Counted from the first letter of the stretch, positions 5,607 to 56,233 are shown. The stretch is DNA of 64,000 nt from Vicinamibacterales bacterium (GCA_041394685.1 JAWKHU010000038.1:130087-194086), one strand, 5' to 3'. A program made the numbers and translations. Notes: generated by a model from the letters alone, not told the origin.

Positions 5607-7457
5607 CTACCGCACGGCCGTTCCGGCGCCCTGCTGCAGGGTCGTATAGGCGCCTTCGCGCAGCCCCGTCCAACGCTCCGTCTCACCCGACGGCCACCGC
5701 ACCCGCACCTCGCGCACACCCGACGATTCCAGGCCCGCGAGCACGCGCGGGTCGTGCGCGGACAGGTAGCCGCCATCCGTGTGCACGCGACGCCGCAGGG
5801 CGCGCCCGTCCGAGCGCACGACGATGACCTCCGCTCCGAGCATGTCGCGGGCGGGCGTCCGTCCGGCCAGCCGCAGGCCCACCCAGCGGGACTGGCCTGG
5901 GGTGTCGTTGCGCAGCACCCGCGCCGGGCCGTTGCTGTTGAGCAGCACGATGTCGGTGTCGCCGTCGTTGTCGAGGTCGCCGAGCGCCATGCCGCGGCTC
6001 ACCTCCGCCACGCGGAACGCCGGGCCGGCCTCAGCGGACGCGTCACGAAAGCGGCCGCCCGTGTGGATGAAGAGCTGAGTGGGCTGCGCGAGCGGATAGG
6101 GATCGCGCGGGTCGGTGGTGAGGCGCAGCACGGCGCCGTTGGCGGCCACCAGGTCGAGCCACCCGTCGTTGTTCACATCGGCCCACAATGTCCCGAAGCC
6201 GGTGTAGCGCGTGCCGAGCCCAAGCCCGGCCTCCCGCGTCCGATCCTCGAACACCGTCTTGCCGAGGTTCACGTACAGCGTGTTGGTCTCGTCCATCAGG
6301 TGCGTGAGGAAGATGTCGGGCCGGCCGTCGCCATTGAAATCCCCGGAGTCCACGCCCATGCCGGCTTCCGCCTGCCCGTCCCGGTTGAGGGCCGTGCCGC
6401 TCAGCAGTGCCGCGTTCTCGAACGTGCCGTCGTGACGGTTCATCCAGAGCTGGTTCTCGTAGCCGTCGTTGGCCACGTAGAGGTCCAGCCAGCCATCGCC
6501 GTCGAAGTCGTCGGCCACCACGCCGAGGCCGGCGCCGAACGCGCGCGCGATGCCGGCCGACGCCGTGACGTCCTGAAAGGTCCCATCACCCTTGTTGCGA
6601 TAGAGGATGTCGGGCACCGGCGGAAAGGACTTCGGGCCGCAGTAGTCGCGGGCGCTCGTGGCGGCGTAGCAGGCAGGCGGTCGCGCGAGATCCACCTCGA
6701 CATAGTTGGTGACGAACAGGTCGAGCCAGCCGTCGCGGTCGTAGTCCACGAACGACGCGCTCGTGCCCCAGCGCCGATCGCCCGTCCCCGAACGCGCGGT
6801 GGCGTCCTCGAAGCGGCCGCCGCCACGGTTCATCCACAACTGGTTGGCGCCAAGGTTGGTGATGGCAGGTCCACGCGGCCGTCGTTGTCCACGTCGCCGG
6901 CGGCCACTCCCATCCCGTAGCCACGCGCCTCGATCCCGCTCGCCGCGGTCACGTCAGTGAAGGTCAGGCGGGCCGACCCAGGCGCGAGGTCGTTGCGGTA
7001 GAGCCGTCCGGACGGCGGCTGCGCGCCGGTCCACGGCGTCAGCGTCTTCGCCGCATCGTCGGACGGCCGCAAGGTCGTGCCCTGCACGAGGAAGAGATCG
7101 AGATCGCCGTCGTTGTCGAAGTCGAACAGCGCGGCGCCGGAGCCGACTATCTCGGGATAGAGGTAGTCGCCGGTGAGGCCGTTGTAGTGACGGAAACGGA
7201 TGCCGGCCGCAGAGGTGATGTCGGTAAAGGTGGCGGGGGCCGCAGATGGCGCAGATGACACAGAGGCCGCAGATTGCGCGGAACTCGCAGAAGCCGCAGA
7301 TGGCGCAGATGACGCAGAGGCCGCAGATTGCGCGGATGACACAGGGGACGCAGATGGCGCAGATGGCGCGAATGAGGCGAAGGGGTGGAGGGTGCGAGGG
7401 GGCCACGCCCGAAACGGCGAGCACGAGGGCGACGATTGGGAGGGGAGGGCGGTGCAT
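5607..7457 (-). CDS. CRTAC1-family FG-GAP/VCBS repeat protein with ASPIC/UnbV C-terminal domain (frame breaks near 6850 and near 7385-7420)
   Basis: Repeats include FDFDNDGDLDLF, GDVDNDGRVDL, VDYDRDGWLDLFVTNY, DDFDGDGWLDLYVANDG, GDFNGDGRPDIF and GDLDNDGDTDIV. The C-terminus is ...GAEVIVV..GGYLSAHDPRV..VRVRWPSG. The gene is split over ORFs 5607..6839 and 6830..7342. The signal peptide MHRPPLPIVALVLAVSG (ATG at 7457) is in a third frame. Confidence 0.75.
7242..7385. repeat. Tandem 9-mer array, 16 units (GCAGATGGC/GCAGATGAC/GCAGAGGCC family) with a 54-bp higher-order period
   Basis: Read directly: gcagatggc gcagatgac acagaggcc gcagattgc gcggaactc gcagaagcc, repeated, then decaying (gcgaatgag gcgaagggg). 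On the minus strand it translates as a Ser/Ala linker between the signal peptide and the mature CRTAC1 domain. Confidence 0.9.
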
Positions 7458-7497
7458 CGTGAGGCGGGACGCGTGCCGGGTGGTCCGGCGCGTCGCG

Positions 7498-8208
7498 TTA
7501 CGGTGGCGGGGGCCGGCGCGGCGGGGCGGCGCGGCCGTCCGGGGGTTCGTTTGACGGGGGCGGCGCGGGGCTGGGCGCGGTGGATGGCACACCGGGGCGT
7601 GCGCCTTCGGGGCGACCGTTGCTCAGGCTTTCGGGGCGGGGTTCGGACGACGCGGCCGACGGCGTGCGGTCGGCGGGCGTGGCGCCGCCATCACGACCGT
7701 TCGCACGATTCTCCTTGTCTTCCGCAGAATCGGCGGCGGCGTCTGGCAGGTTGGTGACGAGGCTGTCTGGTTCGAACGCAGCATTCTCCGCGGCACCGAC
7801 GATCCGCTCGAGTACGGACGCCGGCGTCGTGCCCGCCGGCACGTCACCCTTGGCCAGCACCAGGATCAGATCGATATCCGATGCGCCGCCGGCGCCCGAG
7901 CGCCGGCGGGCGACGTAGCCGGCCGCGTCGCCGAAGATGGCGGCCAGCGCTTCGGCTTCGGGGACGGCGTGCAGCCGCATCGACAGGGTGCGTGCGCCCA
8001 GCAGGTCGGCATTGATCACGGTGGTGCCGCCGGCGCGGGACCATTCCTGCAGCACGCGCGTCGCCGGGATGTCGTCGGCCACCAGTGTCACGCGGCCGGC
8101 GTCGAACGACACGGCGAGCTGGCGGGCGTCGGCGCCCATCGACCATCCGGCCAGGATCGCCAGGGCAAACCCCACCAGTCGCCACGCCGGCGTGCTGCGC
8201 CGCTTCAT
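7498..8208 (-). CDS. Hypothetical secreted protein with Pro-rich C-terminal tail
   Basis: Likely start is MKRRSTPAWRLVGFALAILAGWSMGADA (signal peptide). A structured N-domain is followed by a low-complexity P/S/A tail. GC3-rich codon usage. No family recognised. Confidence 0.5.
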   Translation of the reverse strand: MKRRSTPAWRLVGFALAILAGWSMGADARQLAVSFDAGRVTLVADDIPATRVLQEWSRAGGTTVINADLLGARTLSMRLHAVPEAEALAAIFGDAAGYVARRRSGAGGASDIDLILVLAKGDVPAGTTPASVLERIVGAAENAAFEPDSLVTNLPDAAADSAEDKENRANGRDGGATPADRTPSAASSEPRPESLSNGRPEGARPGVPSTAPSPAPPPSNEPPDGRAAPPRRPPPP

Positions 8209-8224
8209 CCCGACGATTGTACCG

Positions 8225-9604
8225 CTACCGGTCCGCGGCCGCGGCCGGGCGGCCCGCCTCTTCGTGCAGCGGCATGCCACCCTGACACGTGGCCGCGTGC
8301 GCAGCGCGCTCCGCGACAAACCGCGCCAGCAGGTCGTTGCCGAGCTGGTTCAGATGGCAGCAGTCGTCGGCGTACACCGGCCTCGATTCCGTGTCGAACA
8401 GGTCCACCGCACTGGTGATGTCCACGCCCCTGGCGGCCAGCGCGGGCAGGCGTGCGAGCAGCCGCGGATACCCGGCGCGTGCGGCGTCGGCGTAGGGCGA
8501 CGCCGGATTGATCGCGACGCGGCGCTCCTCGTCACTGAACGGCTTGTGGGAGACGTACTGATTGGGCTGGATGACCTGCGCGGAGGGCACGCCTTCCGCG
8601 CAGAGCAGGTCGCGCACCTCGGCGGCCGCGCGTGCCCACAGCGAGACGGCGGCGTCCAGGTGGTCCGGGTCGTCCGCCGTGGCTCCGCGGCGCCAGGGCT
8701 CGAGGCGCAGGACGCCGTCCTGCGCACCGACATATTCGACCAGGGCGCGATTGGCCGCGGCGGCACTGCGTGCGGCCGCGTCGCGGCGCAGCCGGGCGAG
8801 AGCCAGACAGCGGCGGCTCGCGTCCGCGCCATCTGCGACTCGAAATCGCGATGCGCGCTGCCCGTCGCGCCGGGCGCGCACCACGAGTTCCAGCCGGTCG
8901 ATCAGCACGGCCTGCGCGTCGAGCAGGACTTCAGCGGCAGCAGCACCTGCGCTGGGGACGGACGGATCGATACCGCTCTGCACGTTGCCGGAGGCCAGCA
9001 CCACGTCGTTGAAGCCGTCCACCGTGACGGCGAGGATGCGCTGGCGCGCGCGCGCAGAGATAGGCGAGCACCGCCAGCGTCTGCGGCTGCTTGAACGCCC
9101 CTGCACGCCAGGTTGAGGATCTCGATGGGGCGCCCGCGCGGCGCCAGCTCAGCCGTGCAGCGAGCGCGGGTTCTCCTGGAGCATAGCCCACTGCGCCACC
9201 GACCCGCCGAGCACGGCGACGACAAACGTCTGCGCACCGGGCGCCGTCAGGTAGTCGGCCGTCGCGAAGAAGCCGAGGTTGTTGGCCCGTCGTGATGCCC
9301 ACTCCGGCGTCGCACCGTCGGTCGTCATGGCGTCGAGGCGCGAGCGGCCACCGCCTCCGCCACCGACTGCCCCGGCCGGCGGATGAAGCCGAGCACCGGA
9401 TGGAGCACCAGGCCCGGAGACGTCTCGGCGTCGGTCGCCTCACCGGCAACCGCGGCCAACGCGCCTGCCTGGCGCGCATCAAGACCCCGCCGTCGGGCCG
9501 CGCATACGCCCGAGGACGCCCGCCGCCTCGCACAGCAGCGCGATCGCAACCAGATTGACGGCGACACGACAGCCGCGACGCGAGGCACGCCTCACTGTTC
9601 TCAT
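8225..9604 (-). pseudogene. SGNH/GDSL-like hydrolase or acyltransferase-like membrane-anchored protein, fragmented over at least 4 frames as sequenced
   Basis: The largest piece (8225..9106) ends with a block-V-like DDCCHLNQLGNDLLA motif. Upstream pieces in other frames are NNLGFFATADYLTAPGAQTFVVAVLGGSVAQWAMLQENP, ELAPRGRPIEILNLA and the N-terminal TM VAVNLVAIALLCEAAGVLG. Confidence 0.4.
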
Positions 9605-10282
9605 GGGCAGCACACGCGGTGCGGTATACAGTCTGGAACCGCGTGTCCGACCACCAGAATACGGCCGACCGCCCGTGGCGCGCACGTCGGAGGCATGGGA
9701 CACCATCGGGCGGCTGCAGTTCGACTTCCTCGTGTCCCGAGGGCCTCAGGCCCGTCGCCGGCTGCTCGACGTGGTGCGGGTGCCTGCGGGGAGGCGTGCA
9801 CTTCGTCTCCTACCTCGCCGACGGCCACTACTTCGGCATGGACCGCAGCGAGGCACTGCTGGACGCGGGACGCGAGCACGAGCTGGCCGCCGAACGGCCG
9901 ATCGCCGCGTGACGCTGCTCTGCCGCGACGACTTCGCCTTCGGCGAGTTCGGCACGCTTCGACATGGCGCTGGCCCAGTCCGTCTTCACGCACCTTCGGA
10001 ACTCCATCCTTCGCTGTCTCGGAGATGCGGGCGGTGCTCGACGTGGACGGCCTCTTCTTCGCCACCTGGTTCGAGGACGCGGACGCTCGCACAAGACGAC
10101 GAGCATCACGCACGACCCGGGCGGCGTGACCACGTTCCCGGATCGGGATCCCTACCACTACGAGTTCTCCGTCTTCGAGGACCTCGCCCGCCGCGCCGGG
10201 CTCATCGTCGCGGACCTCGGCGCCTGGAACCACCCGCGCGCGCAACGGCTGATGGTGTTCCGGCGCCCGGAACTCCCGCTGA
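9603..10282 (+). CDS. Class I SAM-dependent methyltransferase (several frame breaks as sequenced; boundaries approximate)
   Basis: Pieces are SEAWDTIGRLQFDFLVSRG, GGVHFVSYLADGHYFGMDRSEALLDAGRE, FDMALAQSVFTHL and HDPGGVTTFPDRDPYHYEFSVFEDLARRAGL..AWNHPRAQRLMVFRRP. Confidence 0.55.
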
Positions 10283-11275
10283 TGCACGGCCCGTCGGCTC
10301 CCGCCCTCTCCGTCGTCGTTGTCGTGTTCGACATGGCGCGCGAGGCGCCGCGGACGCTCTTCACGCTGTCGCCGGCGTATCAGGGCCTGCCCGCCGACAC
10401 CTACGAGGTCATCGTCGTGGACAACGGCTCGTCGCCGCCGCTCGGGCGCGAGACCGCGGAGGCCGTCGCGGCAACGTGCGGTGCACGTGTACGTGGACGA
10501 CGCGGCACCGTCGCCTGCAGCCGCGCTGAACCTGGAAGCGTGCTGAACGCGCGGAGGGACTGATCAGGTTCATGGTGGACGGCGCGCGCATGCTGTCGCC
10601 GGGCGTTCTCGGCTACGCGCATCAGGCGGCCCGTGCCTATCGACGGCCGGTCGTGAGCACGCTGGGCTTTCACCTGGGCCACGAGCCCCAGGTGACCGCC
10701 ATGACAAGGGGCTACGACCAGGCCGTCGAGGACACCTTGCTCGACACCGTGGACTGGCGCGGCAACGGCTACGAGCTCTTCCGGATCTCGACGCCGGCAT
10801 CTCGTCCGGCCACGGCTGGTGGGGACCGCTCGCCGAGAGCAACTGCGTGTTCGTGACCCGCGACACCTTCGAGGCCCTCGGTGGCTTCGACGAGCGGTTC
10901 GACATGCCAGGCGGCGGGCTGGTGAACCTCGACTTCTACCGCCGCGCCTGCGAAGCTCCTGGGACCGAGCTGGTGGTCCTCCTCGGCGAGGGCTGCTTTC
11001 ACCAGTTCCACGGCGGCGCCATGACAGGACAGCGCATGGAAGACGTCGCCGCACGGTTCGCCACCCAGGACGCGCAGTACCGCGAGCTGCGTAGTGAACC
11101 GTACCGGCTGCCGCTGGTCCGCTGCGACTACATCGGTCACGCCCCGCCGGCGGCGCACGCCTCGCTGGCGGACGGCGTGGCCAGGTTCGAGGCGTTCCGG
11201 ACCGCCTCACCCGAAGACGCGCGGGCGTACGCCGCCGGGGCCACTTCCGCCCAACCGGCCGCAGCCGGCCACGGC
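10282..11275 (+). CDS. Family 2 glycosyltransferase (frame breaks near 10540 and 10850; may be fused to the following sulfotransferase)
   Basis: Pieces are LSVVVVVFDMAREAPRTLFTLSPAYQGLPADTYEVIVVDNGSSPPL, a mid piece GVLGYAHQAARAYRRPVVSTLGFHLG, then FVTRDTFEALGGFDERFDMPGGGLVNLDFYRRA (a DxD/ED-type GT2 core). Confidence 0.6.
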
Positions 11276-12004
11276 TCCTCAGCGCCAGGTCATCGTCGTC
11301 GGCATGCATCGCAGCGGCACGAGCATGCTGACCGGAAGCCTGCAGCAGGCGGGGCTGGTGCTCGGCGAGGTCGTCACCGAGGCCCCGCACAACGCCAAGG
11401 GCAACCGCGAGTATCCCGCCATCCTGCACATGCAGGAGGAGCTGCTCGTCGCGAGCGGTGGCTCGTGGGACCGGCCGCCAGCGGAGGTGCGCTGGGGAGT
11501 CGCGGCACCGCGCCGTGCGCGACCTCTTCATCGCGCGCTTCCGGACGAGCCGCTCTGGGGTTCAGGATCCGCGCACGCTGCTGACGCTCGAGGGGTGGCT
11601 CAGGCGCTGCCGTCCGCGGAGTTCGCCGGCATCTTCCGCCATCCGGCCCTGGTGGCGCGCTCCCTGCGCCGCCGCACTGGGCTCGACATGGACACGGGCC
11701 TCGAGCTCTGGCGCGTCTACAACACGCGGCTACTCGAGCTGCACCGCCGCCATGCGTTCCCGCTCATGGAGTTCACGACGACGCCGCGGAAGTTCGGCGG
11801 CAGATGGCGACGATGATCGCGCGGCTGGAGCTGCCGAACCGGCAGGCGCCGTCGTTCTTCGAGGACCGGTTGCGGACACGTCCCGCCGACGAGGCGCCGT
11901 TGCCGGACGCGGTGTCGAGGCTGTACGCGGAGCTGCGGGAGCGAGCGGGTACGCCCCGGCCGGCGCCCGATGAGCAGCCGGCCGGGAGTCGAACGGACGG
12001 TTAG
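11276..12004 (+). CDS. Sulfotransferase-family protein (frame breaks near 11520 and 11810; start uncertain)
   Basis: The 5'-PSB-type motif VIVVGMHRSGTSMLTGSL is followed by GNREYPAILHMQEELL, then FRHPALVARSLRRRTG..LELWRVYNTRLLELHRRHAFPLMEF. It is paralogous to the N-domain of 13859..15312. Confidence 0.55.
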
Positions 12005-13641
12005 CGCTGCGGCAGGCTGCGCTCGAGCGCCTCGAGCCGCATCTTCAGCGCGTCGAACTGCTGCTGCTGCTCGGTGAGCTGCCGCTGCAACTGCTCGATG
12101 TAGATGTGGGCCTTCTCCAGCTCGTTGAGCATGCCGGCGGCCTTGCGCCCGATGTTCCACGGCGCGTCCTCGGGTGTCGGCCCGACGGCCGGCAGGTAGC
12201 CGTTGCCCCACATCTCGGCCGCGTGATCCTCGATCGTGGGCATCGCGTAGTCCGGGTGGAACACACGGTCGCAGCCGTCCACGCCGCCGCCGCCGCCGTT
12301 GCCGTCGCTGCAGTTGCCACCGACGACCAGGTTGCCGCGGAGCGTGAGGTTGCCGCCGGTGTCCAGCGTGGCTTCCGTTGCGCCCGTGCCGCTCTTCGAG
12401 AACACGAGGGCCTCGCCGGCCGCTCGCATGCTCACGTTCCAGAAGCTGCTGTTGTTGCCGGCATCGAGCTGGAAGGCCACGTCCCCGTCGGAGTTCGCCA
12501 GCTTGAGGGCCGCGTTGCCGGTGCCGATGTTGCTCGCCGTGCCACGCACGTCGATCGGCGCTTGCGGGGTCGTCAGACCGAACCCGACGCGCCCCGTGGC
12601 GGAGATGTCCACGGCGCTCGTCGGCGCGCCCGGACGGACGCGGAACGGATAACGGTCACCGGCGGTGGAGTCGCGGACGAAGAAGTTGGCCTCGTTCCCG
12701 CCGATGTCCCATCGCTGCGCCGCAAAGCCGCCGGAGTTGTTCTGCTCCAGGCGCAGGGCGGGCGTGTTGCTGGTGTTGAAGTGGGCATCCAGCGCCGGCG
12801 AACTGGTGCGGAAACCGACGCGACCGGTGCTGTCCACGTACAGCGAACTGGTCGGGGAGTTGGCCTCCACGAGGAAGGGCGTCCGGCCGGCCGTCGAGTC
12901 CTCGACGGCGAAGTAGTTGGCGCCTCCGTTGGTCGTGTCGTTGATCACGATGCGCCAGTCGTTGGCCGGGAAGGTGCCGGTGGACGTGTCGTCGAAATGG
13001 ATGCGGAGGTTGTTCTCCCTCAGGCGGATCGAATCGGAGCCGAAGTTCTCCGGCACCACGCAGTCGACGCCCACGCAGGCAGCGTTGTAGACGTATAGGT
13101 TGTCGTTCGCGGTGAGGCTCGGCGAGTCGGTGCCGGCCAACGACGGCGGCACGCCGTCACCATCCGGGGCGGGAAGCGCCGTCTTCTCGTCGCTGCCCGG
13201 CTTCGGATACCGGCCGTTGAGCACGAACGCGTCGAGCGGCAGGCCGCCTACCGTCTCGGCATCGGCCGCCTTGAGCGCGTACGGCACGCTGGCCCAGAAG
13301 GAACGAGGGCCCTCGGGCGCGCCGTCCACCGAGATGCCCAGCCATCGAGCCTCGCCCTTGGTGAAGAGGTCCGAGGGCAGGCCCTCGGGCTGGGTGGCGC
13401 CGAGCAGGGTCGAGTACTGCCCGTTGGCGTCGAGCGCCAGCGCCTGGGTCTCACTCCAGATGGGGGCGCCGCCTTCCTTCTCGCTGTAGATCGCGAAGGT
13501 GATGGTGACGCCGCCAGCCAGCAGGTTGCCGCCGGCATCGCGGGCCACGCCCGAGGCGGGCACGACACGCGGAGGCGCCTGAGCAGACGTGGACTGCAGC
13601 CCCAGCAGCCCGATTCCGATGGCGATCAACAAGCCCTTCAT
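12001..13641 (-). CDS. Secreted tail-fibre-like repeat protein with C-terminal coiled coil
   Basis: Intact 546-aa ORF with a GGGAGGA RBS and signal peptide MKGLLIAIGIGLLGLQSTSAQA. It has repeated STGRVGFRTSSPA / ATGRVGFGLTTPQAPIDV beta-strand units typical of tail-fibre-domain proteins. The C-terminus is FHPDYAMPTIEDHAAEMWGNGYLPAV...LEKAHIYIEQLQRQL. Confidence 0.75.
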   Translation of the reverse strand: MKGLLIAIGIGLLGLQSTSAQAPPRVVPASGVARDAGGNLLAGGVTITFAIYSEKEGGAPIWSETQALALDANGQYSTLLGATQPEGLPSDLFTKGEARWLGISVDGAPEGPRSFWASVPYALKAADAETVGGLPLDAFVLNGRYPKPGSDEKTALPAPDGDGVPPSLAGTDSPSLTANDNLYVYNAACVGVDCVVPENFGSDSIRLRENNLRIHFDDTSTGTFPANDWRIVINDTTNGGANYFAVEDSTAGRTPFLVEANSPTSSLYVDSTGRVGFRTSSPALDAHFNTSNTPALRLEQNNSGGFAAQRWDIGGNEANFFVRDSTAGDRYPFRVRPGAPTSAVDISATGRVGFGLTTPQAPIDVRGTASNIGTGNAALKLANSDGDVAFQLDAGNNSSFWNVSMRAAGEALVFSKSGTGATEATLDTGGNLTLRGNLVVGGNCSDGNGGGGGVDGCDRVFHPDYAMPTIEDHAAEMWGNGYLPAVGPTPEDAPWNIGRKAAGMLNELEKAHIYIEQLQRQLTEQQQQFDALKMRLEALERSLPQR

Positions 13642-13858
13642 GCCAGACGTCCTCCCTCACCCGGACCGCGCACGTCCGTGCGCCGCCAGGTCACCCATCG
13701 CACCCGCGGACGAACGACCGTGATGGACGCCCGGACGGGTGCTGCTTCGGTCAGTATCGGCCATTCTCCGAGGAACTGTAGAGCTGTCGCGCGCCCGGCC
13801 GTTCATCGTGTGCAAACGCGGGGAACCGCGGGCGACACTACCAAGAGACGGGATTAAC

Positions 13859-15312
13859 ATGAGCGCGATGGCCGGCAATGCCCAGGGGCCGGAGTCCAGC
13901 CGCGCGCCGCTGACGGCACCCGTGTCGTCCACCGTGATCTGCGTGGTGGGCATGCACCGCAGCGGCACCTCGGTGGCCTCCCGCCTGTTGAACCTCGTCG
14001 GCGTGTTTCTCGGCGACCAGCGGTCGATGATGCGGCCCGCGGGCGACAATCCCACCGGGTTCTGGGAGCACGAGCCGATCATGGTCGTCAACGACCAGGT
14101 GCTCGAGCGATTCGGCGGGCGATGGGATGCGCCGCCCAGCCGGGCGCAGGATCCCGGGCTCGACGACCTGAAGCACCAGGCCCGCGAGCTCCTCGCCCGC
14201 GACTTCCACGCGGCTGCCCTGTGGGGCTTCAAGGATCCACGGACCGCCATCACCCTGCCGTTCTGGCAGGAGGTCATCGGGCCGATGCGCTACGTGGTCT
14301 GCCTCCGGAGCCCGGCCGCCGTCGTCGCATCGCTGGCCCGGCGCGACCGAATGCCCTCGGAGACCGCGGAACGCCTCTGGTTGCAGCACGTCCGCGGCTG
14401 CCTCGCCTACACGCGCCACCAGCCGCGCATGTTCCTCTACTACGACGACGTGCTCGACGACTGGAAGACGGAGCTCGGCCGGCTCGCCGCATTCGCCGGC
14501 GTACCCGACCGCGCCGACGACCCGCGCGTGCAGCGTGCCGTCAGCGGCTTCCTCGACCGCGAACTGGCGCACCACGATGGGTCCGCCGTGCTGCTGGCGG
14601 CAGACCGGCGCCTCTCGATGGCCACGACGGGCCTGTACCTGACCATTCGCGGGCTGGCGCCCCGCCACGCGCCCTCACCCACGGCCACGATCGACCACGC
14701 CGAGAGAGGCAGCGATCCCGACGACCTGCTGGACCTGCTGGCGACGCGCGCGCTCGACACCTTCGACGACGCCAGGGCGACCGCGGCCGACCGCGCGCGT
14801 CTGGCCGCGCAGGCGGACGCCCTGCAGGACGCGCTCCGCCAGATGCGGACGCGCACGGCGGAGCTGGATACGCGCCTCGCACGGCTCCAGGCGGACCGTG
14901 ACGCGATCGCAACCGAAGCCGGAGAGTGGCGGACCACGGCCGCGGCCGCGCAGGAGGCCGCCGCACGCCTCGAGGCCGAACGCGACCGCACGGCGGAGCA
15001 GTTGGCCGAGGCACACGCGTCGGCCGCCCGCCTCAGGGCGGAGCATGATGCGTTGATGGCGCGTGCGCGCAGCCTGGAGGACGGCCTTGCCGCGCTCGGC
15101 ACGTCCCTCGACGCCGTGACGACCGACCGTGACGGCCTGGCCGCGGCCCTGGTCCGAGCGGACGCCGAGTTGACCGAGATTCAGTCCAGCCGGGCGTGGA
15201 CGGCCGTCACCGCCGCGCGCACGGCCGTCGTCCGGCTCCTGCCGCGGGATCCCGACGGCGGCGGCAATACGACCGCGCCGTCGCGCGCCTGCCGGGACGT
15301 CCGCGGGCCTGA
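13859..15312 (+). CDS. Sulfotransferase domain fused to a long Ala/Arg-rich coiled-coil domain (frame break near 15235)
   Basis: N-domain motifs are VICVVGMHRSGTSVASRLL, FKDPRTAITLPFW and CLRSPAAVVASLARRD, followed by about 200 aa of heptad-like A/R/E/L sequence. The natural end ...GSRRRRQYDRAVARLPGRPRA-TGA (15310..15312) is in another frame. The ORF-track extension to 16090 is antisense read-through. Confidence 0.7.
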
Positions 15313-15325
15313 CGCGCCCGGCGGC

Positions 15326-16746
15326 TCAGCGCACCATGCGGCGGATGACGCCGTCGCCCTTGTTGATCATGAGGATCTGATCGTCGAGCGCCGCGTTCAG
15401 CCGCAGGTCGGCGCGCGTGGCTGGCGTCTTGCCCTGCGCCGCGTTGGTCTCCTGAATCACCTGCAGGAACGTCCGGTCGCCGGCAGGCGTGCGCACGAGG
15501 ACGCGCCGAATGGGATCCTGGCCGCCTTCGGGCAAGTCGTCGGCGCTCACGTAGAACATCTCGCCGCTCGGGTTGTCGGTGAAGAGGACGCGGTTGGCGA
15601 CCTGCGGAATGGCCGTCCCGCGGTAGATCACCAGGCCGCATGCCGCCGACTGCGGCTGCAGCAGAGGGTCGAGCTGCCCGTACTCCGCGAACGGGAACGT
15701 CACCGCCGGATCGCCGCGGCGTCCCTCGGCCTCCACCGCCTGCCGGCCGACGAACTGTACGAGCCCTCCCAGACGTTCCAACCGAGGTTGCCGCCCTTCG
15801 GCACCAGCGTCACCTTCTCGACGATGTTCTGGCCGATGTCGGCGAGGAAGAGGTTTCGCGTCTTCGCGTCCCACGCGAAGCGCTGGCGTTGCGGATGCCG
15901 TAGGCATAGATTTCGGGAGGGCCCCGGCGCGGGCGACGAAGGGATTGTCCGACGGGATGCCGCACTGCGTCGCATGCCCGTTGGTCCCGAGCGGGTCGAT
16001 GCGGAACATCTTGCCGAACGCCGAGCCGAGGTTCTGCGCCATGTTGAACGGATCGCCGCCACTGCCGCCGTCGGCGATGGTGATGAGTAGGAGGCCCGCC
16101 TCGGTGCTTCCCGCCGCGGCCGTGGGATCGAACGCGAGGTGGCCGGCGTTGTGGTTGGCGAAGGGCTGCCGGATGCGGAAGAGCACGCGCGGCGGTCCGC
16201 CGTCGTAGGTGGCCGCGGACGGATCCTTCGCCGTCCACTCGAGGAGGACCGTGTCGTGGGTGGGCTTGTCGCCGCCGGCAGGCAGGAAGTCCGGTTCCGG
16301 CGTCATGTTCGACGTGTCGGTGAACGTGTAGAACCTGCCGTAGCCCGGAGCGCCGGCGCGCCCGAACTGCGGATGGAACGTGAAGCTCTGGAACCCGCGT
16401 TCGCGACCCGACGATTGCACGGGATGCCCCCACGCAGACGCGTTGGTGTCCACATATAGCGCCACCGAGGCGCCGTCGTAGCTGACGCTGTAGAGCGGTC
16501 CGCGCATGTCGTTGACGAAGAGGCGCCGGGTCGTAGTCTCGTCCACCAGGTTCATCATGCGCGCCGCGACACCGTCGATGTCGGGCAGCCGGGCGAACTC
16601 CGACACGCCGACGCGAATGACGTCCCGATCGGTCGCGATCGGTCCGGGGAACGGATCGTTGGTCTGCCCTGGCGCAGCGTGCCGGGCGCACGGACGAACG
16701 CGGCGGCGAGGAGCGCGGACAGGAGCCGGGTGAGTGCGATGGGCAT
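15326..16746 (-). pseudogene. PQQ-dependent sugar (glucose/sorbosone) dehydrogenase, secreted; four frame breaks as sequenced
   Basis: The signal peptide MPIALTRLLSALLAAAFVRA is in ORF 16555..16746. The body is in 15326..17077 (NDMRGPLYSV, FHPQF, RIRQPFANHNAGHLAFDP, ADGGSGGDPFNMAQN). The central part is in two other frames (EIYAYGIRNA; RFAWDAKTRNLFLADIGQNIVEKVTLVPKGGNLGWNVWEG). Confidence 0.7.
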
Positions 16747-16761
16747 GGGGGAGTTTAGTCT

Positions 16762-16844
16762 GGGGCGTGGGGCGGGGGCGTGGGGCGTGGGGCGTGGGAC
16801 CTGGGGCTTGGGGCTTGGGGCTTGGGGCTTGGGGCCTGGGACTT
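16762..16844 (+). repeat. Tandem G-rich 7-mer array (GGGGCGT then GGGGCTT), 12 G-tracts
   Basis: Read directly: GGGGCGT GGGGC GGGGGCGT GGGGCGT GGGGCGT GGGACCT GGGGCTT x4 GGGGCCT GGGACTT. It lies in the 161-bp divergent spacer between the dehydrogenase start (16746, minus) and the propeller-gene start (16908, plus). Confidence 0.9.
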
Positions 16845-16907
16845 GAGCTAAGCTCGGCGCTGGTTCGTCCGGGCGCGCGCCCCCCTCGCCTGCCTCTGGA
16901 GGTCCAC

Positions 16908-19889
16908 ATGTCTTGCCTTCTCCGGCGCCTGGCCGGCATCGTCTGGATGCTGGCGCTCGTTCCCCACCCGGCCCTCGCGCAGTACGCCGAGACCGCGCGA
17001 ACGCTGCCGGTCGCCGACGGGCTCGTGTACACCGGCACCCAGATCGGGTCGCGCCTCTTCATCGGCGGGACGTTCACGCACGTCGCGCCGCCAACCGGCG
17101 GCGCCGCGGTGTTCGACGACGCCGATCAGCCCGTTCCGGGTAACTGGCCCGTCATCGGCGGCACCATCTCGCGCATCATCCCGGACACACTCGGCGGGTG
17201 GGTGGCCGTGGGTTCGTTCACCACGGTGAACGGGCAGCCGCACGCGGGGCTCGTGCACGTGACGGGCGCCGGCGAGGTGGACCCGCGGTTCCGCATCGTG
17301 GCCGATGGAGGCATCTCGTCCGTGGCGCTGGCGCACGGACGCCTCTACCTTGCCGGGCCCTTCACCACCGTGAACGGCGCTCCGCGCCGCGGCCTGGCCG
17401 CGCTCGACGCCTCGTCGGGTGCGCTGTTGGCGTGGGGACAGGCCTTCCAGGCCTTCGACATCAGCTTCGTCGCCGCGCTGGTGACCTCGTCCACCGGCGT
17501 CTACGTGAGCCTGACGGGTGCGCCGGGCGGCGGAACCTGGGGGCTCGCGGCCAGTGACGGCCACGTGCTCTTCCACCTGCCCATCATCTACGGGGCCCTT
17601 GCGCCCACCTCGACGCGTCTCTACGCCGCCGGCTACGTCCCCGCCGTGCAGCAGAATCGCGTCGTCGTCCTCGATCCGCAGACGGGCGCCGTCGATCCCT
17701 CGTGGGTGTCGCCCGTCCGGTTCCAGACCATCAGTACTACCAGCGGCGACCGCACGTTCTTCTCCCGCATGATCCTCGACGGCGACACGCTCTACGTGGC
17801 GGGGGCGTTTCGGACCGCCGGGGCGAGCCGGCAACACCTGATGGCGCTGAGCGCGTCGAGCGGCGCGCTGCTGCCCTGGCAGCCGGACGCCGCGTTCAAT
17901 CCGAGCAACGGGGTGCGCGACATCGTCCTGCTGCCGTCGCAGGTCATCGCCGTACACGAGAGCATCGGGTTCCCGGGACCGCTGCACGACGTCACGACAT
18001 TCGATCGGGTGAGCGCCGCCGCGACCCCTCGGCTCCTGCCCGTCTTCGGCAACGTCGCCACCGTCGCCCCGGTGGCCGCCGGAGTCGTGGTCGGCGGCAG
18101 CTTCGGCGGGTTCGGCGGAGAGGCGCGCGCCCAGCTCGCGGCCATCGACCTGGACACCGGCCTGCTCGACGCGTGGGCCCAACCGGCCGGCTCGCCGGCC
18201 AGCGTGATCGTGCTCGCCACGGATGGCGCCGCGCTCTTCGCGTGCCGCGTCCGGGACGTGGGCGGCCTGCCGCAGCCGACGATCGACAAGCTCGATGCCG
18301 ACGACGGCCACGTCGTGGCATCGCTCGACCTCGGTGGGCCGCTGGCGACGGCGCTGCTGCAGATGCGGGCCGCGGGCGGCCGCCTCTACGTCTGGGGGCT
18401 CTTCGACAGCCTGGGCGGACAGAGCCGCACCGGGCTGGCGGCCATCGACATCGCGACGTGGACGGTCCTGCCCTGGGCGCCCGCCACGGACAACCGGGTC
18501 TTCGATCTCGACGTGGTGGGCAACACCGTCTACCTGGCAGGCCACTTCTCCACCATCGACGCCACGCCGCGGCCGGGCCTGGCCGCGATCGACGCAACGA
18601 CCGGCGCGCTCCTGCCGTGGAACCCCGACGCCGACACGGCGCGGTTCTCCGGCGTTCGCGTCCGTGCCGGCCGTGTCCTCGTGAGCGGGGACTTCCGCCG
18701 AATCTCGGCCGTGCGCCGACGAGGGTTTGCCGCGCTGGACCCGGTGACGGCGGACGCCGACGCGTGGAATCCCGACTCGCCACCAGGATTCCCACAGGGG
18801 ATCAACGGCTTCGCGCTGGATGCCGCAGGCATCCTCTACGCGATGGGCGGGTTCTCCACGATCGTCGGCGGTCAACCCTCGGTCGGGCTCTTCGCCCTGT
18901 CGTCCGAGACCGGCCTCCGGCTGCCATGGCAGCCGCCCGGTCCCCTCTCGCTGAGCCGCGCGTCGGCGCTCCCGAGCTGTCTGCTTCTCGTCAGCGTCTC
19001 CCGGGTCGAGACGCCAATCCTGAACAGCTACGCCTGCCTGCCACCGCTGCCGCCGCCCACGAACGTATCCGCCAGCCTCTCGGGCGCGACGGCAACGCTG
19101 TCGTGGACGCCACCAGCGGCGGATGTGACCGGGTACCGCATCGAGGTCGGGCGCGGCGCCGGGCAGCGCGACCTGGCCACCGTGGCCGTGGATGCGGGCA
19201 CGACATCCGCATCGGGCTCCCTGCCGGCCGGTTCGTACGTCGCACGCATCCGCGCGGTGCACGGCGAGGTCGCCAGCATGCCCTCACCCGACGTGAGCTT
19301 CGCGGTCGCGCCGCCGGATGTACCGGGCATCCCGCTGGATCTCTCCGTGGCCACCGAGGGTCAGCGCGTGCGGTTCTCGTGGCGCCCGCCGACGGTCGGC
19401 ACGCCCGCCGGGTACCTCCTGGAAGTCGGCGTGGCTCCGGGCCGCGCGGACTTCGCGTCGCTCACGCTCCCGCCGACGTCCACGTTCGAGGTGCCCACCG
19501 CACCAACCGGCATCTACTGGGCGCGTCTCCGCGCGATCAACGCAGCCGGCGCCAGCGGGCCGTCGAACGAAGTCGTGATCAACGTCGACGGCAGCGCCGC
19601 GCCCTGCTCGCTACCCCCACTCGCACCCGCCGGCCTGGCGGCCAGTGTCACCGCGCGCGTCGTCACCCTCACCTGGATACCGGCCACGACGGGCGCCGTC
19701 TCCAACGCGCAGCGCATCGTTGTCGGGTCGGCCTCGGGACTGGACAATCTCGGCGTGTTCGAAGTGGCGGGTCCGGCCACGACGTTCAGCGCACCGGCGC
19801 CGCCGGGCACGCACTTCGTTCGCGTCTACGGGTTCAACGCGTGCGGCGCAAGCCCGTTCAGCAACGAAGTGCAGGTGGTCGTCCCGTGA
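16908..19889 (+). CDS. Secreted beta-propeller repeat protein (DUF5122/delta-60-like repeats) with three C-terminal FN3 domains
   Basis: Intact ORF with likely start MSCLLRRLAGIVWMLALVPHPALAQ after a TGGAGG RBS. About 12 repeats of the pattern G.V.ALA..G.LY.GG.F..V.G..R.GLAA.D..TGALL.W. Three FN3 modules have the W..P...Y..EVG...G and G.Y.ARIRA.N..G.S.PS..V signatures. Confidence 0.8.
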   Translation: MSCLLRRLAGIVWMLALVPHPALAQYAETARTLPVADGLVYTGTQIGSRLFIGGTFTHVAPPTGGAAVFDDADQPVPGNWPVIGGTISRIIPDTLGGWVAVGSFTTVNGQPHAGLVHVTGAGEVDPRFRIVADGGISSVALAHGRLYLAGPFTTVNGAPRRGLAALDASSGALLAWGQAFQAFDISFVAALVTSSTGVYVSLTGAPGGGTWGLAASDGHVLFHLPIIYGALAPTSTRLYAAGYVPAVQQNRVVVLDPQTGAVDPSWVSPVRFQTISTTSGDRTFFSRMILDGDTLYVAGAFRTAGASRQHLMALSASSGALLPWQPDAAFNPSNGVRDIVLLPSQVIAVHESIGFPGPLHDVTTFDRVSAAATPRLLPVFGNVATVAPVAAGVVVGGSFGGFGGEARAQLAAIDLDTGLLDAWAQPAGSPASVIVLATDGAALFACRVRDVGGLPQPTIDKLDADDGHVVASLDLGGPLATALLQMRAAGGRLYVWGLFDSLGGQSRTGLAAIDIATWTVLPWAPATDNRVFDLDVVGNTVYLAGHFSTIDATPRPGLAAIDATTGALLPWNPDADTARFSGVRVRAGRVLVSGDFRRISAVRRRGFAALDPVTADADAWNPDSPPGFPQGINGFALDAAGILYAMGGFSTIVGGQPSVGLFALSSETGLRLPWQPPGPLSLSRASALPSCLLLVSVSRVETPILNSYACLPPLPPPTNVSASLSGATATLSWTPPAADVTGYRIEVGRGAGQRDLATVAVDAGTTSASGSLPAGSYVARIRAVHGEVASMPSPDVSFAVAPPDVPGIPLDLSVATEGQRVRFSWRPPTVGTPAGYLLEVGVAPGRADFASLTLPPTSTFEVPTAPTGIYWARLRAINAAGASGPSNEVVINVDGSAAPCSLPPLAPAGLAASVTARVVTLTWIPATTGAVSNAQRIVVGSASGLDNLGVFEVAGPATTFSAPAPPGTHFVRVYGFNACGASPFSNEVQVVVP

Positions 19890-20020
19890 CACGAAGGGCA
19901 CGAAGGGGAGAACACGAAGGGGGGCACGGAGGACACGAAGAGCACGAAGGGGACGAAGGGCACGGAGGGCACGGAGAGCACAGGGGGCGCGGAGGGCGCG
20001 GAGGGCTCGAGGGGATCGAG
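19890..20020 (+). repeat. Tandem purine-rich 9-mer array (CACGAAGGG family), about 14 units, decaying 3'-ward
   Basis: It starts on the nucleotide after the TGA stop (19887..19889): cacgaaggg cacgaaggg ... cacggagga cacgaagag cacgaaggg gacgaaggg cacggaggg cacggagag cacaggggg cgcggaggg cgcggaggg ctcgagggg atcgagcgt. Confidence 0.9.
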
Positions 20021-34698: not shown

Positions 34699-36624
34699 TC
34701 AGAAGACGTCCACGCGCATGTCGGCCGTCGCCGGACCGATGCCCGCCACGTTCATCGCCCGCACGCGCACGTAGTAGGTGCCCGGAGGCGCGTTGGCGGC
34801 CACCAGCGACTCCTGCGGCGTCATCATCGTGCCCACGTCCGTGAGACCGATCTGCGATCCCACCTCGACGATGTAGTTGTCAACGGGACCGCCGGCCGAT
34901 GGTGCCTGCCACGCAAGCGTGACGGTGCGGCCCGTCAGCAGGTGTGTGAGGCCGTCGGGCGCGCCCGGCGGGGCCACGCTGGTGGACAGGGTGACGGCGA
35001 CGTCGTTGGAGGGCGCACCGGTACCGCAGGCGTTGAGCCCGCGCACGCGCAGGTAATAGGTCCCCGGAGGGCCCGTCGCCACCAGCGCCGGCAGGCCACC
35101 GATGTTGCGGCGGCCGTGCTCGACGCCGCCCGGCGTGGCTCCCACTTCGAGCAGGTAGGCAGTGGCTCCAGGCGCGGCGCCCAGTGCGAGCGACATCTGC
35201 AGGCCGTCCACCGTGGCCGCCAGCGGTCCGGGCGCCTGCGGCTCCGACATGCACCCGGTAGCGCCCAGCGTCACCAGCAGCTCGCTCGATGGCGGGCCGA
35301 GCCCGTATGCGTTTCGTCCCCGCACGCGCACGTAGTAGGTGCCGGCCGGCGCGTCGGCGTCGAAGGTGGTCGCCGCTCCCGCCGTGGCCTGGACCAGCAG
35401 GTTGCTTGCTCCAGCCACCGACCCCGCCTCGATGATGTAGTCGGCCGGAAGGCCGCCGGTGGTCGGCGGCAGCCACGACAGCCGCACGCGGAACGTCGTT
35501 GCGGTTGGCGAGTCGCCCATGCGGGCGATGCGCCCCTGCGCAGGCTGGAGCTGGTCGAACCCGAACGTGCGAATCGCGAAGCCCCAGGCCGCGTCTGCAC
35601 CAGGCGCGGTCACCGCCGCATCGCCTTGCTGACCCGCGACGGCATAGGACAACAGGAGGGGCGCACCGGGCACGCGCGAGAAGGTGGGTGACGGCGTCGG
35701 CGTAGGTATTGGAGTCGCCGACGGCGTCGGCGTCGGTACGGGAGTCGCCGACGGCGTCGGTGTCGGCACCGGGCTGGCCGATGGCGTCGGTGTCGGCACC
35801 GGACTCGCCGATGGCGTCGGCGTCGGCACCGGACTCGCCGATGGCGTCGGCGTCGGCACCGGACTCGCCGATGGCGTGGGGGTCGGCACCGGACTCGCGG
35901 AGGGCGTCGGTGTAGGCACCGGGCTCGCTGACGGCGTCGGCGTCGGCGTGACGTCGAAGTGATTGAACACGAGCGCGGGGCCCGCCTGCCCACCGTTCTC
36001 GCGGGAGGCCAGGAACATGCCGCCGTCGCCGCTGGTGGTCGTCCGGCGGATCCGGAACGTCGTGGCGCCGCCGTTGACCAGGGCGGTGACGTCGAAGCTC
36101 AGCTCTCCCGGGCCGGTGTAGCCGCCCTCGGCGCCCGGGGGCGTCCCGGCCGCCGTGTTGTTGAAGGTCGCGTCTCCCTCCGTCTGCGTCGTCGAACACG
36201 CTTCGGCCGTGATTGTCTCGAACGTGGGCGTGAAGTCGATGACCACCTGCGTCACCAGCGTGACCTCGTCGGCCGGGCCGTAGGTGGACAGCAGGGTCGA
36301 GACGGCGGTGGGGTCGAAGATCACCAGCGCATCGGCGCTGTCGGCGCCCTGCACCTCCACCGTCAGCTGCCCGTCGGTGCCGAAGTTGGTATCGGGCTGG
36401 TCCGACCGCAGCGTGGTGTCGCCGGCCACGTCGATCTGCCGCAGGACGGCGTGCGCGGCCGTCACGCCGAAGAGCGGCCCCAGGGCCGCACCGCCGACGA
36501 TGCGACTGAGGTAGCTGACGCCGCCAGAGGCGGTGAAGCCGGTGCCGCCGACGAGCCGCTGCACGAAGCCGCGACGGGACAGCGGATAGCGAGGCCGGGG
36601 ATCGCCGGGGCCGGATGTCTCCAT
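34699..36624 (-). CDS. Tat-exported DNRLRE-domain protein with Pro/Thr/Ser decapeptide linker and three FN3 domains
   Basis: Intact 641 aa. Twin-arginine motif is [17 protein letters not shown]-like motif is [21 protein letters not shown]. There are nine [10 protein letters not shown] repeats. Three FN3 modules carry [13 protein letters not shown] signatures. Confidence 0.8.
35683..35949 (-). repeat. In-frame 30-bp tandem repeat x9 encoding (TPTPSA[ST]P[VI]P)n linker
   Basis: Read directly. Several units differ only by synonymous changes (gcgagt versus gccagc for Ala-Ser) while the peptide stays identical. Confidence 0.9.
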
Positions 36625-36772: not shown

Positions 36773-36930
36773 GTGACCGTGACGTTCGTCGTTCATCACG
36801 CGCATCGGGCCCATCACCACCGTTCCACGAACGGCCCGGCCGGACTGCGCGCGTAACACGACGAAGACATTCACGACGATTCGTTTCACGCGAAGGCCCG
36901 CTGGGAAACCAGCGGGCCTTTGTCGTTTCT
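36773..36930 (+). promoter_or_regulatory. Candidate his-operon leader: His-rich leader ORF (GTG 36773 or 36779 to TAA 36854..36856) plus terminator = putative attenuator
   Basis: The codons read GTG ACC GTG ACG TTC GTC GTT CAT CAC GCG CAT CGG GCC CAT CAC CAC CGT ... TAA, giving (M)[26 protein letters not shown] with 6 His in 9 codons. A small hairpin CCGTTC-CAC-GAACGG (36820..36834) follows, then the terminator. It lies 22 nt upstream of the hisI ATG. Confidence 0.6.
36893..36930 (+). terminator. Intrinsic terminator hairpin upstream of hisI
   Basis: A 12-bp stem AAGGCCCGCTGG / CCAGCGGGCCTT with a GAAA tetraloop, followed by TTGTCGTTTCT. Confidence 0.7.
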
Positions 36931-38194: not shown

Positions 38195-38250
38195 GAATTC
38201 AGAAGTCAGAATTCAGAATTCAGAAGTCAGAACGGAGAAGGCGGAGCACA
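38195..38250 (+). repeat. Tandem 7-mer array filling the hisG-hisD spacer (GAATTCA/GAAGTCA family, 8 units)
   Basis: GAATTCA GAAGTCA GAATTCA GAATTCA GAAGTCA GAACGGA GAAGGCG GAGCACA, running from the base after the hisG TAG to the A of the hisD ATG. The decayed 3' units supply the hisD RBS (GGAGAAGG). Confidence 0.9.
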
Positions 38251-39551
38251 TGATCCGGGTCGTTCCTTCCACCAATCGCAGGGCCGTGACGGCGCTGCTG
38301 TCCTCCACGCGGGTGCGCGACCGTGTCACCGACCGCAAGGCGGCCGCGATCGTCGAGCGCGTGCGCGCGGGCGGAGACCAGGCGTTGCGTGCCTGCGTGC
38401 GGGAGTTCGACGGCGTGTCCGGACCGCTGGAGATTCCGCGGGCACGCTGGGCGGAGGAGGCCGCGTCGGTTCCCGACGCCGTGCGTGAGGCCATTCGCAC
38501 GGCCGCCCGCCACATCCACCGGGTGGCCCGCGCGCAGGTGCCGCGCGGGTGGCGCGTGCGCGTCGAGCGCGGCGTCACCGTGGAGCAGCGCGTGGTGCCG
38601 CTGTCGCGCGTGGGCTGCTATGTCCCGGCCGGCCGGTATCCGCTGCCGTCGTCGCTGCTGATGACGGCGCTGCCCGCCAGGGCGGCCGGTGTGCCCGAGG
38701 TGATCGTGGCGTGCCCGCGGCCGGACGCCACCGTGTTCGCCGCGGCCATCGAAGCCGGCGTGGACCGCGTCTTTCGGATGGGCGGCGCCCACGCGATTGC
38801 GGCCCTGGCCTACGGCACGCGGAGCGTGCCGCGGGTGGACAAGATCGTGGGGCCGGGCAATCGCTGGGTCTCGGCGGCCAAGTCGCTCGTCACCGCGGAC
38901 TGCGCCATCGACTTCTATGCGGGCCCGACCGAGATCCTCGTGCTCGCGTCGAAGACCCCGCCGGCGTGGGTGGCAGCCGATCTCATTGCCCAGGCCGAGC
39001 ACGATCCGGACGCCCGGGCCGTGTGCGTCACCACGAGCCAGGCGTACGCCAACCGGATCGCGGCCGAAGTGGCCGCCCAGCTCCCCGCCACCGGGCCCGC
39101 GGCCACCTCGCTGGCGCGCCACGGCGGCATCATCGTCGCGCGCTCCCAGCGGGAGGCCGTGGATCTCGCCAACCAGGCGGCTTCCGAGCACCTGGTCGTG
39201 GAGAGCGACGCCGTCGCGGAGCAGATCGTGAACGCGGGCGCGATATTCGTGGGGAGCTGGACCGCCCAGGTGGCGGGCGACTACGCCATCGGCTCGAACC
39301 ACGTGCTGCCGACGGCCGGCGCGGGACGCTACCGCGGCGGGCTGAACGCCGCGGACTTCGTGAAGCTGATCTCCGTGCAGCGCGCCACGGAGCGGGGCCT
39401 GCGGGCCATTGCCGGCGCCGTGACGACGCTGGCGCGAGCCGAGGGCCTGGAGGGACACGCTCGGTCCATCGACGTGCGCATGGGGACCGGCACGCCGCCA
39501 CGAGCCGCACGCGGGGCGCGCGCGACAGCAGGGACGGAGACGACGCGATGA
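38250..39551 (+). CDS. hisD: Histidinol dehydrogenase
   Basis: Intact 433 aa with motifs [27 protein letters not shown] and EGLEGHARS. Confidence 0.9.
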
Positions 39552-42149: not shown

Positions 42150-42163
42150 CAGGGATCGCGCTG

Positions 42164-56216: not shown

Positions 56217-56233
56217 CAGCAGGAGCACACGCG

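Follow-up and report, generated by a model that had tools for sequence, protein, structure and literature searches.

A G-rich heptamer array between two gene starts

We analysed a stretch of 64,000 nucleotides (nt) from a Vicinamibacterales bacterium (GCA_041394685.1, JAWKHU010000038.1:130087-194086; GC content 71%), which is called the window below, and focused on a tandem array of 12 head-to-tail G-rich heptamers on its plus strand (16762-16844). The array lies between the starts of two genes that point away from each other. The minus-strand gene (15326-16746) belongs to the glucose/sorbosone dehydrogenases of the pyrroloquinoline quinone (PQQ) type by its Pfam GSDH match, encodes a signal peptide and has its start codon (CAT) at 16744-16746. 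The plus-strand gene (16908-19889) starts with an ATG at 16908 and encodes a secreted protein of 993 aa with DUF5122 beta-propeller and fibronectin-III (FN3) domains according to Pfam, for which a signal peptide is predicted. The spacer between the two start codons (16746 on the minus strand, 16908 on the plus strand) measures 161 nt, of which 83 nt are taken up by the array.

Tandem Repeats Finder (TRF), run on the window, reported the array at 16761-16840 with period 7, 11.6 copies and 90% matches, and reading the sequence in register, unit by unit, gave the 12 heptamers. An earlier note on this DNA had described a G-rich heptamer array at these positions, located between the starts of the minus-strand dehydrogenase and the FN3 gene and on the sense strand of the latter. 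All of this was confirmed, with the gaps on the two sides counted here as 15 nt and 63 nt, and the start of the protein in NCBI agrees with the intergenic location. A pattern of three units with up to 3 mismatches had 8 matches on both strands of the window, which all fell within the array (100 shuffles gave 0.05 ± 0.22), and pattern scans of both strands of the 64-kb window found neither a second GGGGCKT array nor an inverted partner. The array is a run of uninterrupted units within the range of 5-11 nt and longer than expected by chance, i.e. a long simple sequence repeat (SSR).

Two blocks make up most of the array. Block A (16762-16795) consists of five GGGGCGT units starting at 16762, 16769, 16775, 16782 and 16789, the second of which lacks the T and is 6 nt long (GGGGCG); a zero-mismatch pattern match covers 16775-16795. 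The junction unit GGGACCT (16796-16802) joins it to Block B (16803-16830), which contains four GGGGCTT units at 16803, 16810, 16817 and 16824, and the array ends with two degenerate units, GGGGCCT at 16831 and GGGACTT at 16838 (16831-16844). The switch from CGT to CTT units had been taken as a sign of two expansion episodes. The two blocks are real, and a stepwise expansion is plausible, since arrays of this kind at other sites are typically built from blocks of variant units as well. In total the array provides 12 tracts of G3-5 with loops of 1-4 nt, and a 13th tract (GGGGG, 16747-16751) lies outside it, in the 15-nt spacer GGGGGAGTTTAGTCT between the dehydrogenase start codon and the array (16747-16761). 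On the other side, the array is separated from the FN3 start codon by a unique stretch of 63 nt (16845-16907), which contains a near-palindrome GAGCT-A-AGCTC (16845-16855), a GC-rich palindromic stretch and a GGAGG (16898-16902) that, as read from the sequence, is the ribosome-binding site (RBS) of the FN3 gene.

The start of the FN3 gene is well placed. An identical 993-aa protein with the same start is found in NCBI, from a Vicinamibacterales metagenome-assembled genome (MAG). An open reading frame (ORF) from a GTG at 16734, which would translate the repeat, was rejected, because the ATG at 16908 is the start supported by the RBS, by the signal peptide and by NCBI's annotation.

The reading frame of the dehydrogenase gene changes four times, each time in the same direction (2>1>0>2>1), so that the gene occupies all three frames. 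Along this series come the signal peptide (start 16746), then the N-terminal domain, next the EIYAYGIRN motif and the RFAWD...GWN block, and last the C-terminus, and the Pfam GSDH profile is split as well, with positions 101-173 and 183-228 in separate frames. The long neighbour genes are unbroken and an intact homolog of 495 aa is present in L021 (related loci are given by L numbers), so the gene is probably a pseudogene in the present assembly rather than a product of general sequencing error. Thus the earlier description as a PQQ dehydrogenase holds for the family but not for an intact gene. Because the array adjoins a pseudogene, half of what had been called a promoter region is probably under relaxed constraint.

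For the same locus elsewhere, exact-protein look-ups with three window proteins and the identical NCBI protein gave no match, and relatives of the FN3 gene were not found in genome contigs and metagenome contigs. A search with the FN3 protein returned the identical NCBI entry and then homologs of at most 44% identity, the closest of which (41-44%) are non-syntenic. The FN3 homolog loci L081 and L083 have unrelated neighbourhoods and no short-period array, and the GSDH homologs in L016 and L021 stand in other contexts with no upstream array.

Predicted quadruplex capacity and expression signals

With 13 tracts in 16747-16844, the region fits the rule for a putative G-quadruplex (G4), i.e. at least four tracts of G3+ separated by loops of 1-7 nt, and the cluster of putative quadruplex sequences spans 16762-16818. 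G4Hunter scoring, which the earlier note had proposed, gave a mean of 2.02 over 16762-16844 (the usual threshold is 1.5-2.0), and with a 25-nt scoring window the array is the only region of the 64-kb stretch that reaches 2.0. For 16755-16850, ViennaRNA with G-quadruplex terms predicted two four-layer quadruplexes and the energy fell from -43.7 to -82.7 kcal/mol. By these predictions the array is the strongest G-quadruplex site in the window, and the statement that it goes several-fold beyond the canonical pattern of four G3+ tracts with N1-7 loops is borne out as a prediction. With canonical pairing only and DNA parameters, the two strands reached just -9.1 and -3.5 kcal/mol, with z near zero (-0.15 for -9.1). 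A hairpin or cruciform for the array was also considered and rejected, because it has no match on the reverse strand of the window and a negligible Watson-Crick fold.

Repeats of the G4N3 type, e.g. TTGGGG of Tetrahymena, fold stably in K+, and the telomeric (TTGGGG)n of Tetrahymena and the pilE G4 of Neisseria are canonical intramolecular quadruplex motifs. The array resembles them in its tracts of G3-5 and loops of 1-4 nt; its unit CTTGGGG equals the Tetrahymena TTGGGG plus one C, and 12-13 tracts suffice for three tandem quadruplexes. Unlike the telomeric repeat, it sits at an internal position of a bacterial chromosome, its quadruplexes are predicted ones, and its class shows no strand selection (see below).

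These properties could point to a quadruplex that works as a cis-regulator. The G-rich plus strand, which has the sense of the FN3 gene and serves as template for the pseudogene, would fold into two or three tandem quadruplexes and tune transcription or translation of the FN3 gene, either in the non-template DNA strand before or within the FN3 transcription unit, aided by negative supercoiling between divergent genes, or in the 5' leader RNA. A G4Hunter score that is unique in the window, the stability of G4N3 repeats, the gain of about 39 kcal/mol in ViennaRNA and the lack of a rival hairpin all speak for it, as does the roughly two-fold enrichment of G-run units among the arrays of the clade. 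It is weakened by the absence of an upstream array from the FN3-gene homologs in other genomes and by a search for expression signals, in which neither a sigma-70 consensus promoter nor an intrinsic terminator was found in 16400-17100. Together with the data on strand, unit composition and the histidine leader given below, this makes a G-quadruplex regulator unlikely in our judgement.

The label “divergent promoter/5'UTR”, which the earlier note had given to the region, was an assumption in view of the missing sigma-70 consensus, and the dehydrogenase gene on one side of it is a pseudogene. Candidates for -35 and -10 boxes picked by eye, TTGAGC (16843), TAAGCT (16849) and TAAACT on the minus strand, were dropped because they have the wrong spacing or no partner. 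The last of them belongs to the minus-strand reading of 16747-16761, AGACTAAACTCCCCC-ATG, where TAAACT, by eye, looks like a -10 box. Besides, Rfam gave no family at the gathering score anywhere in the window, and the array itself corresponds to no known structured RNA by the Rfam covariance models.

Related arrays in the clade and in metagenomes

We searched genome records with the histidinol dehydrogenase of the window (38250-39551) and obtained 80 loci, nearly all labelled Vicinamibacterales or Acidobacteriota, the best being 76-80% identical. These loci and the window (1.43 Mb altogether) were surveyed with TRF. Genes were called by a rough method based on the GC content of third codon positions (GC3), which called about 70% of the DNA coding, and the genomes are not independent, so the tests of unit composition and strand below are indicative only. 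It turned out that the commonest tandem period is 7 (59 array clusters), followed by 9 (30) and 8 (25), and that 110 of the 114 arrays with period 7-9 lie outside the interiors of called ORFs. Where both neighbours were called, 47 arrays stand between co-directional genes, 11 between divergent and 3 between convergent ones. The arrays are concentrated in part of the clade: 43 of 81 sources have none, and those rich in arrays (L001-L010) are the loci most closely related to the window genome. In the window genome, an array is present at about 7-8 of 34 junctions; in L001, a 7-9-nt array is found at 7 out of 8 successive gene junctions across the his operon region (8108-17309). Arrays of the GGGGCTT/AAGCCCC type are present in L001, L007 (three), L008 (two) and L015. 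Many arrays per genome and unit families shared among relatives are thus a feature of the class to which the array at 16762 belongs.

The strongest evidence on how such arrays behave comes from the leader of the histidine operon. Upstream of hisI, 13 Vicinamibacterales share a conserved leader, in which a short ORF with 6-7 His codons precedes a terminator hairpin and its T run (in L001 the leader region is 8262-8563); Rfam has no match to it at the gathering score. In the window the leader ORF is at 36773-36856, the terminator starts from 36895 and the hisI ATG is at 36952. The spacer from the terminator to hisI ranges from 23 to 199 nt across the 13 species and its flanks are conserved. There is no array in L003 (23 nt) or in the window (34 nt). 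The spacer holds (GGCTGAA)3 in L019 (46 nt), (GTCGGGA)5 in L004 (59 nt), (AAGGCAG)5 in L023 (62 nt), (GATTGRGT)n in L002 (92 nt), and (GTCGGGA)n(CCCAAGC)n in L007, L001 and L008 (114-145 nt), where the second block has 6, 6 and 8 copies, respectively; in L010 (199 nt), (GATTGRGT)n is followed by a second octamer array. AAGCCCC arrays flank the leader in L001, L007 and L008. Both the presence and the copy number of arrays vary at this site between related genomes. Since one and the same orthologous, transcribed site holds an array, none or other units in different species and the operon architecture is kept, the arrays seem to be dispensable, facultative elements with fast turnover. The bearing on a quadruplex regulator is direct, because the his leader of the window genome retains its architecture with neither AAGCCCC nor GTCGGGA arrays.

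Further array types were seen around hisD. Arrays of CACGAAGG/CTTCGTG, often as inverted pairs, lie upstream of hisD in L001, L002, L006, L008 and L010. After the conserved end of hisD, an octamer array AAGACCYC occurs in L001 (11264-11325) and also in L002, L006, L008 and L010. This array has no in-frame stop, and the hisD ORF runs on as far as a TGA overlapping with the ATG of hisC; from the sequence, HisD may carry a C-terminal tail that the array encodes.

The unit composition of the class was compared with random intergenic k-mers, using 96 intergenic arrays of period 7-9 with at least 4 copies. Units with a run of G3 or C3 make up 51 of the 96 arrays (22.5 ± 4.2 expected), and 19 have a run of G4 or C4 (5.5 ± 2.3 expected). 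After collapsing to 63 unique units, the numbers are 29 for G3/C3 (15.0 ± 3.4 expected) and 9 for G4/C4 (3.7 ± 1.9 expected). Between co-directional genes, the mRNA-sense strand carries the C run in 13 cases and the G run in 12, i.e. the class has no strand preference relative to transcription. Enrichment without such a bias suggests a cause at the DNA level, e.g. structure-assisted slippage or stalling, which fits better than selection for RNA quadruplexes. Moreover, many arrays of the class consist of units that are incapable of forming a G4, such as GAATTCA and AAGGCAG, which again tells against a quadruplex regulator as the reason for the arrays.

In metagenome contigs, a scan for (GGGGCKT)4 gave at least 120 stretches, and 80 loci were kept. 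These have GC contents of 0.42-0.73 and 4-18 units with a median of 6, so that the 12 units of the window are near the 90th percentile, and blocks of variant units are usual among them. Two homologous pairs were found: one is identical, from two samples and with the same copy number, and the other has 78.6% flank identity and 10 vs 11 copies. Some of the contigs with (GGGGCKT)4 look eukaryotic (L099 5576-6212, L085 and L120), with 90 copies of AGGGTTT as in plant-type telomeres and many di- to tetranucleotide microsatellites, which means that the pattern is not specific to bacteria; others are bacterial and contain several unrelated heptamer arrays.

It could be asked whether the array, or its copy number, is an assembly artefact. 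The sequence comes from a MAG contig, assemblies are often broken or collapsed at tandem repeats, and 17 of 82 metagenome arrays are located at contig ends. Against this, the array is internal to a contig of 202 kb, has unique flanks and is only about 84 nt long, its variant units are in an ordered structure, and equivalent arrays occur in many independent assemblies. An artefact is therefore very improbable.

The copy numbers also bear on the proposal of the earlier note that changes in unit number could make the array a contingency switch for either gene. In Haemophilus influenzae, 7-bp repeats upstream of hmw1A and hmw2A give heritable and reversible variation of expression through their copy number. 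By analogy, gain or loss of heptamers at 16762 would alter the geometry of the promoter or leader and act as a “volume control” that reversibly varies a secreted or surface protein. Like those repeats and the phase-variable AGAT repeats of the Moraxella uspA2 leader (cited in PMC4679880), the array is a short tandem repeat that lies in front of a gene whose protein is exported or located at the surface, and a graded effect on expression is possible in principle. It is a long and fairly pure SSR next to a secreted beta-propeller/FN3 gene, which has a further array at its 3' end, and the copy number of GGGGCTT-type arrays varies among related species (6, 6 and 8 at the his leader; 10 vs 11 in the metagenome pair). 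Several points disagree with an adaptive switch. The array lies neither in an ORF nor between core promoter elements, where contingency loci are expected; with about 84 nt it is too long to fit between -35 and -10 boxes, and its units are alike, so that a change of copy number leaves the spacing to the nearest unit unaltered. Arrays of the class are found beside housekeeping genes, those of the his operon for example, no less often than beside surface genes, unlike a class concentrated on surface genes, and the only identical locus pair from two samples had equal copy numbers. Unlike the hosts of hmw and uspA2, the organism is a free-living soil bacterium, and the repeat is known here from sequence alone. 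The class-level data lean against the proposal, and a contingency locus is in our opinion quite unlikely.

Origin of the array, known repeat systems and other arrays in the window

We consider that the array is probably a slippage-generated, hypervariable heptanucleotide SSR, one of the intergenic 7-9-nt arrays of the clade, and that it is not a maintained switch. Slipped-strand mispairing or unequal exchange would add and remove units, with 7-nt loops evading mismatch repair. Periods that break the reading frame would be purged from coding DNA, so that arrays accumulate in spacers, and units with G runs would have an advantage, probably through G-tetrad or C-rich structures that make the misaligned strand more stable. 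The CGT block followed by the CTT block would then represent successive local expansions of variant units. At 16762, the array would have extended the spacer between the dead dehydrogenase gene and the FN3 gene under near-neutral conditions, and any effect on expression of the FN3 gene would be a by-product.

Several observations weigh against slippage as the whole account. Some array is present at the his-leader site in 10 of 13 species, and arrays at 7 of 8 his junctions in array-rich relatives raise the possibility of selection on spacer length or of a cis-function. Heptamer unit classes are shared in 43 pairs between sources, where 2.8 ± 1.8 are expected, and GGGGCTT and CACGAAGG arrays also appear at non-orthologous sites. 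Besides, the 9-nt arrays, which would keep the frame, are likewise intergenic. Orthology and structural bias account for part of the sharing of units between species; unit bias, selection on spacer length or a trans-acting factor are possible causes of the sharing and of the recurrence at the his sites.

If a trans-acting factor is involved, the arrays could be binding sites for lineage-specific DNA- or RNA-binding proteins, forming a network that regulates genes or organises the nucleoid, in line with what has been put forward for the TAACTGA repeats of Beggiatoaceae. Families such as GGGGCTT, CACGAAGG, AAGACCCC and AGGGATC are common to several species at non-orthologous loci, three heptamers would give 21 bp and so two helical turns, and many arrays end a few nt from an RBS or start codon, as the TAACTGA repeats do (PMC4679880). 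Such sites would not be expected in both orientations, as is the case here, nor with different units at one position in different species, and the his-leader site works with no array at all. The studied array is 63 nt from the start codon, and a candidate binding protein was not identified. We therefore hold a network of binding sites to be unlikely. A wider version of this idea, which we also rate as improbable, is that the 7-9-nt arrays are products or targets of an active system specific to sequence families, e.g. a dedicated binding protein or a repeat-propagating activity, which would seed these same four families into leaders and inter-cistronic spacers across species, with the G-run families acting through G-quadruplex or i-motif DNA. 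If true, a major soil phylum would possess a hitherto undescribed layer that acts genome-wide, either in cis-regulation or in organising the chromosome.

The preferred explanation, an SSR shaped by slippage, agrees with what is known of similar repeats. Cyanobacteria reportedly carry short tandemly repeated repetitive (STRR) heptamers such as CCCCAGT, described by Mazel and colleagues in 1990, and the complement of STRR1, ACTGGGG, is likewise a unit of the G4 type. Common to both are a few heptamer families that have been multiplied in tandem in numerous spacers, frequently close to start codons or promoters; the clade differs in the phylum, in the GC content of 71% and in the periods 8 and 9, which are also common. 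In Nostoc, heptamer repeats near promoters and start codons have modest effects on the expression of recF and recO (bioRxiv 10.1101/2022.06.06.494920).

Long simple sequence repeats (LSSRs) with units of 5-11 nt are sporadically abundant depending on lineage, with heptanucleotides as the most frequent ones and polymerase slippage as the proposed origin (Mrazek, Guo and Shah 2007, as summarised in PMC4679880). For 4-11-mer repeats there is no suppression, which Huang and Mrazek (2014, PMC4060949) connected with the low efficiency of mismatch repair on larger loops. Like LSSRs, which are attributed to slippage and not suppressed as repeats of 1-3 nt are, the arrays in the window and the clade are head-to-tail, most commonly heptameric, mostly intergenic and abundant in particular lineages. 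Unlike LSSRs, they share unit families across species, have an about two-fold excess of G runs and include inverted pairs that form long hairpins. The summaries of LSSRs cited above do not name Acidobacteria or Vicinamibacterales among the repeat-rich genomes.

Another relevant case is a Beggiatoaceae genome with 169 sets of intergenic TAACTGA repeats, mostly just upstream of start codons, for which slippage or a post-transcriptional regulator was proposed and which are also found in Cyanobacteria and Bacteroidetes (MacGregor 2015, PMC4679880). The direct heptamer repeats of the clade are similarly intergenic, and many are upstream of start codons, including those of housekeeping operons. In contrast to TAACTGA, a single heptamer with 2-6 copies, the clade has many unit families, reaches 12-29 copies and uses both orientations, and the studied array stands farther from its start codon than TAACTGA repeats do.

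A literature search on tandem or heptanucleotide repeats in Vicinamibacteria or Acidobacteria found nothing. The array fits the known LSSR/STRR class, and the phenomenon in the Vicinamibacterales lineage appears to be undescribed. As a single locus, a predicted G4-prone microsatellite beside a pseudogene and the FN3 gene has little weight. The Vicinamibacterales are abundant and barely studied soil Acidobacteria, one clade of which is rich in intergenic 7-9-nt arrays; the shared unit families, the excess of G runs and the presence/absence series at the his leader offer a comparative handle on whether STRR and LSSR are junk, mutational hot spots or regulators. It also follows that scans for G4 motifs in such genomes mostly catch microsatellites.

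In the window there are at least 10 further intergenic arrays of 7 and 9 nt with unrelated units, such as GAATTCA, CGCAGATGG and CACGAAGGG. About 14 nonamers CACGRAGGG, of a unit family also present in other Vicinamibacterales, begin at the FN3 stop codon on the plus strand (19889-20014), and the FN3 gene is thus flanked on both sides by G-rich arrays on its sense strand. GAATTCA/GAAGTCA heptamers (38195-38239, plus strand) fill the hisG-hisD spacer up to the RBS, and another GAATTCA-type array is at 43647-43681. Two inverted arrays of this type (56102-56134 and 56191-56215) lie between two co-directional genes, in the interval bounded by the stop codon of one and the RBS of the next, with a predicted hairpin (z = -3.6 for 56095-56222); inverted pairs of this kind were also seen in L015, L025, L043, L066 and L067. 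The CGCAGATGG-type nonamers CGCAGATGR form an array at 41821-41946 with an inverted partner 115 nt away at 42062-42147, for which an RNA hairpin of about 330 nt is predicted (41815-42150; -216 kcal/mol, z = -10.2), and the same unit is repeated at 7238-7369.

Among arrays with the same unit, similarity stops at the array borders, and the array at 16761 matches nothing else. Same-unit arrays have no flanking homology and so do not belong to a larger mobile element; the idea of a miniature inverted-repeat transposable element (MITE) was rejected, as copies share no conserved flanks or termini.

Some minor features of the window were also recorded. The inverted CGCAGATGR pair ends a stretch of 2.5 kb in which the rough caller placed no gene. 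Just 3' of the array at 7238-7369, a run of G-rich segments (7374-7583) with G4Hunter scores of about 1.5 contains no called gene. A 30-nt tandem repeat (35690-35947; 8.6 copies, 89% matches) is located inside a minus-strand ORF with high GC3 (34699-36624) and presumably encodes a protein repeat of 10 residues.

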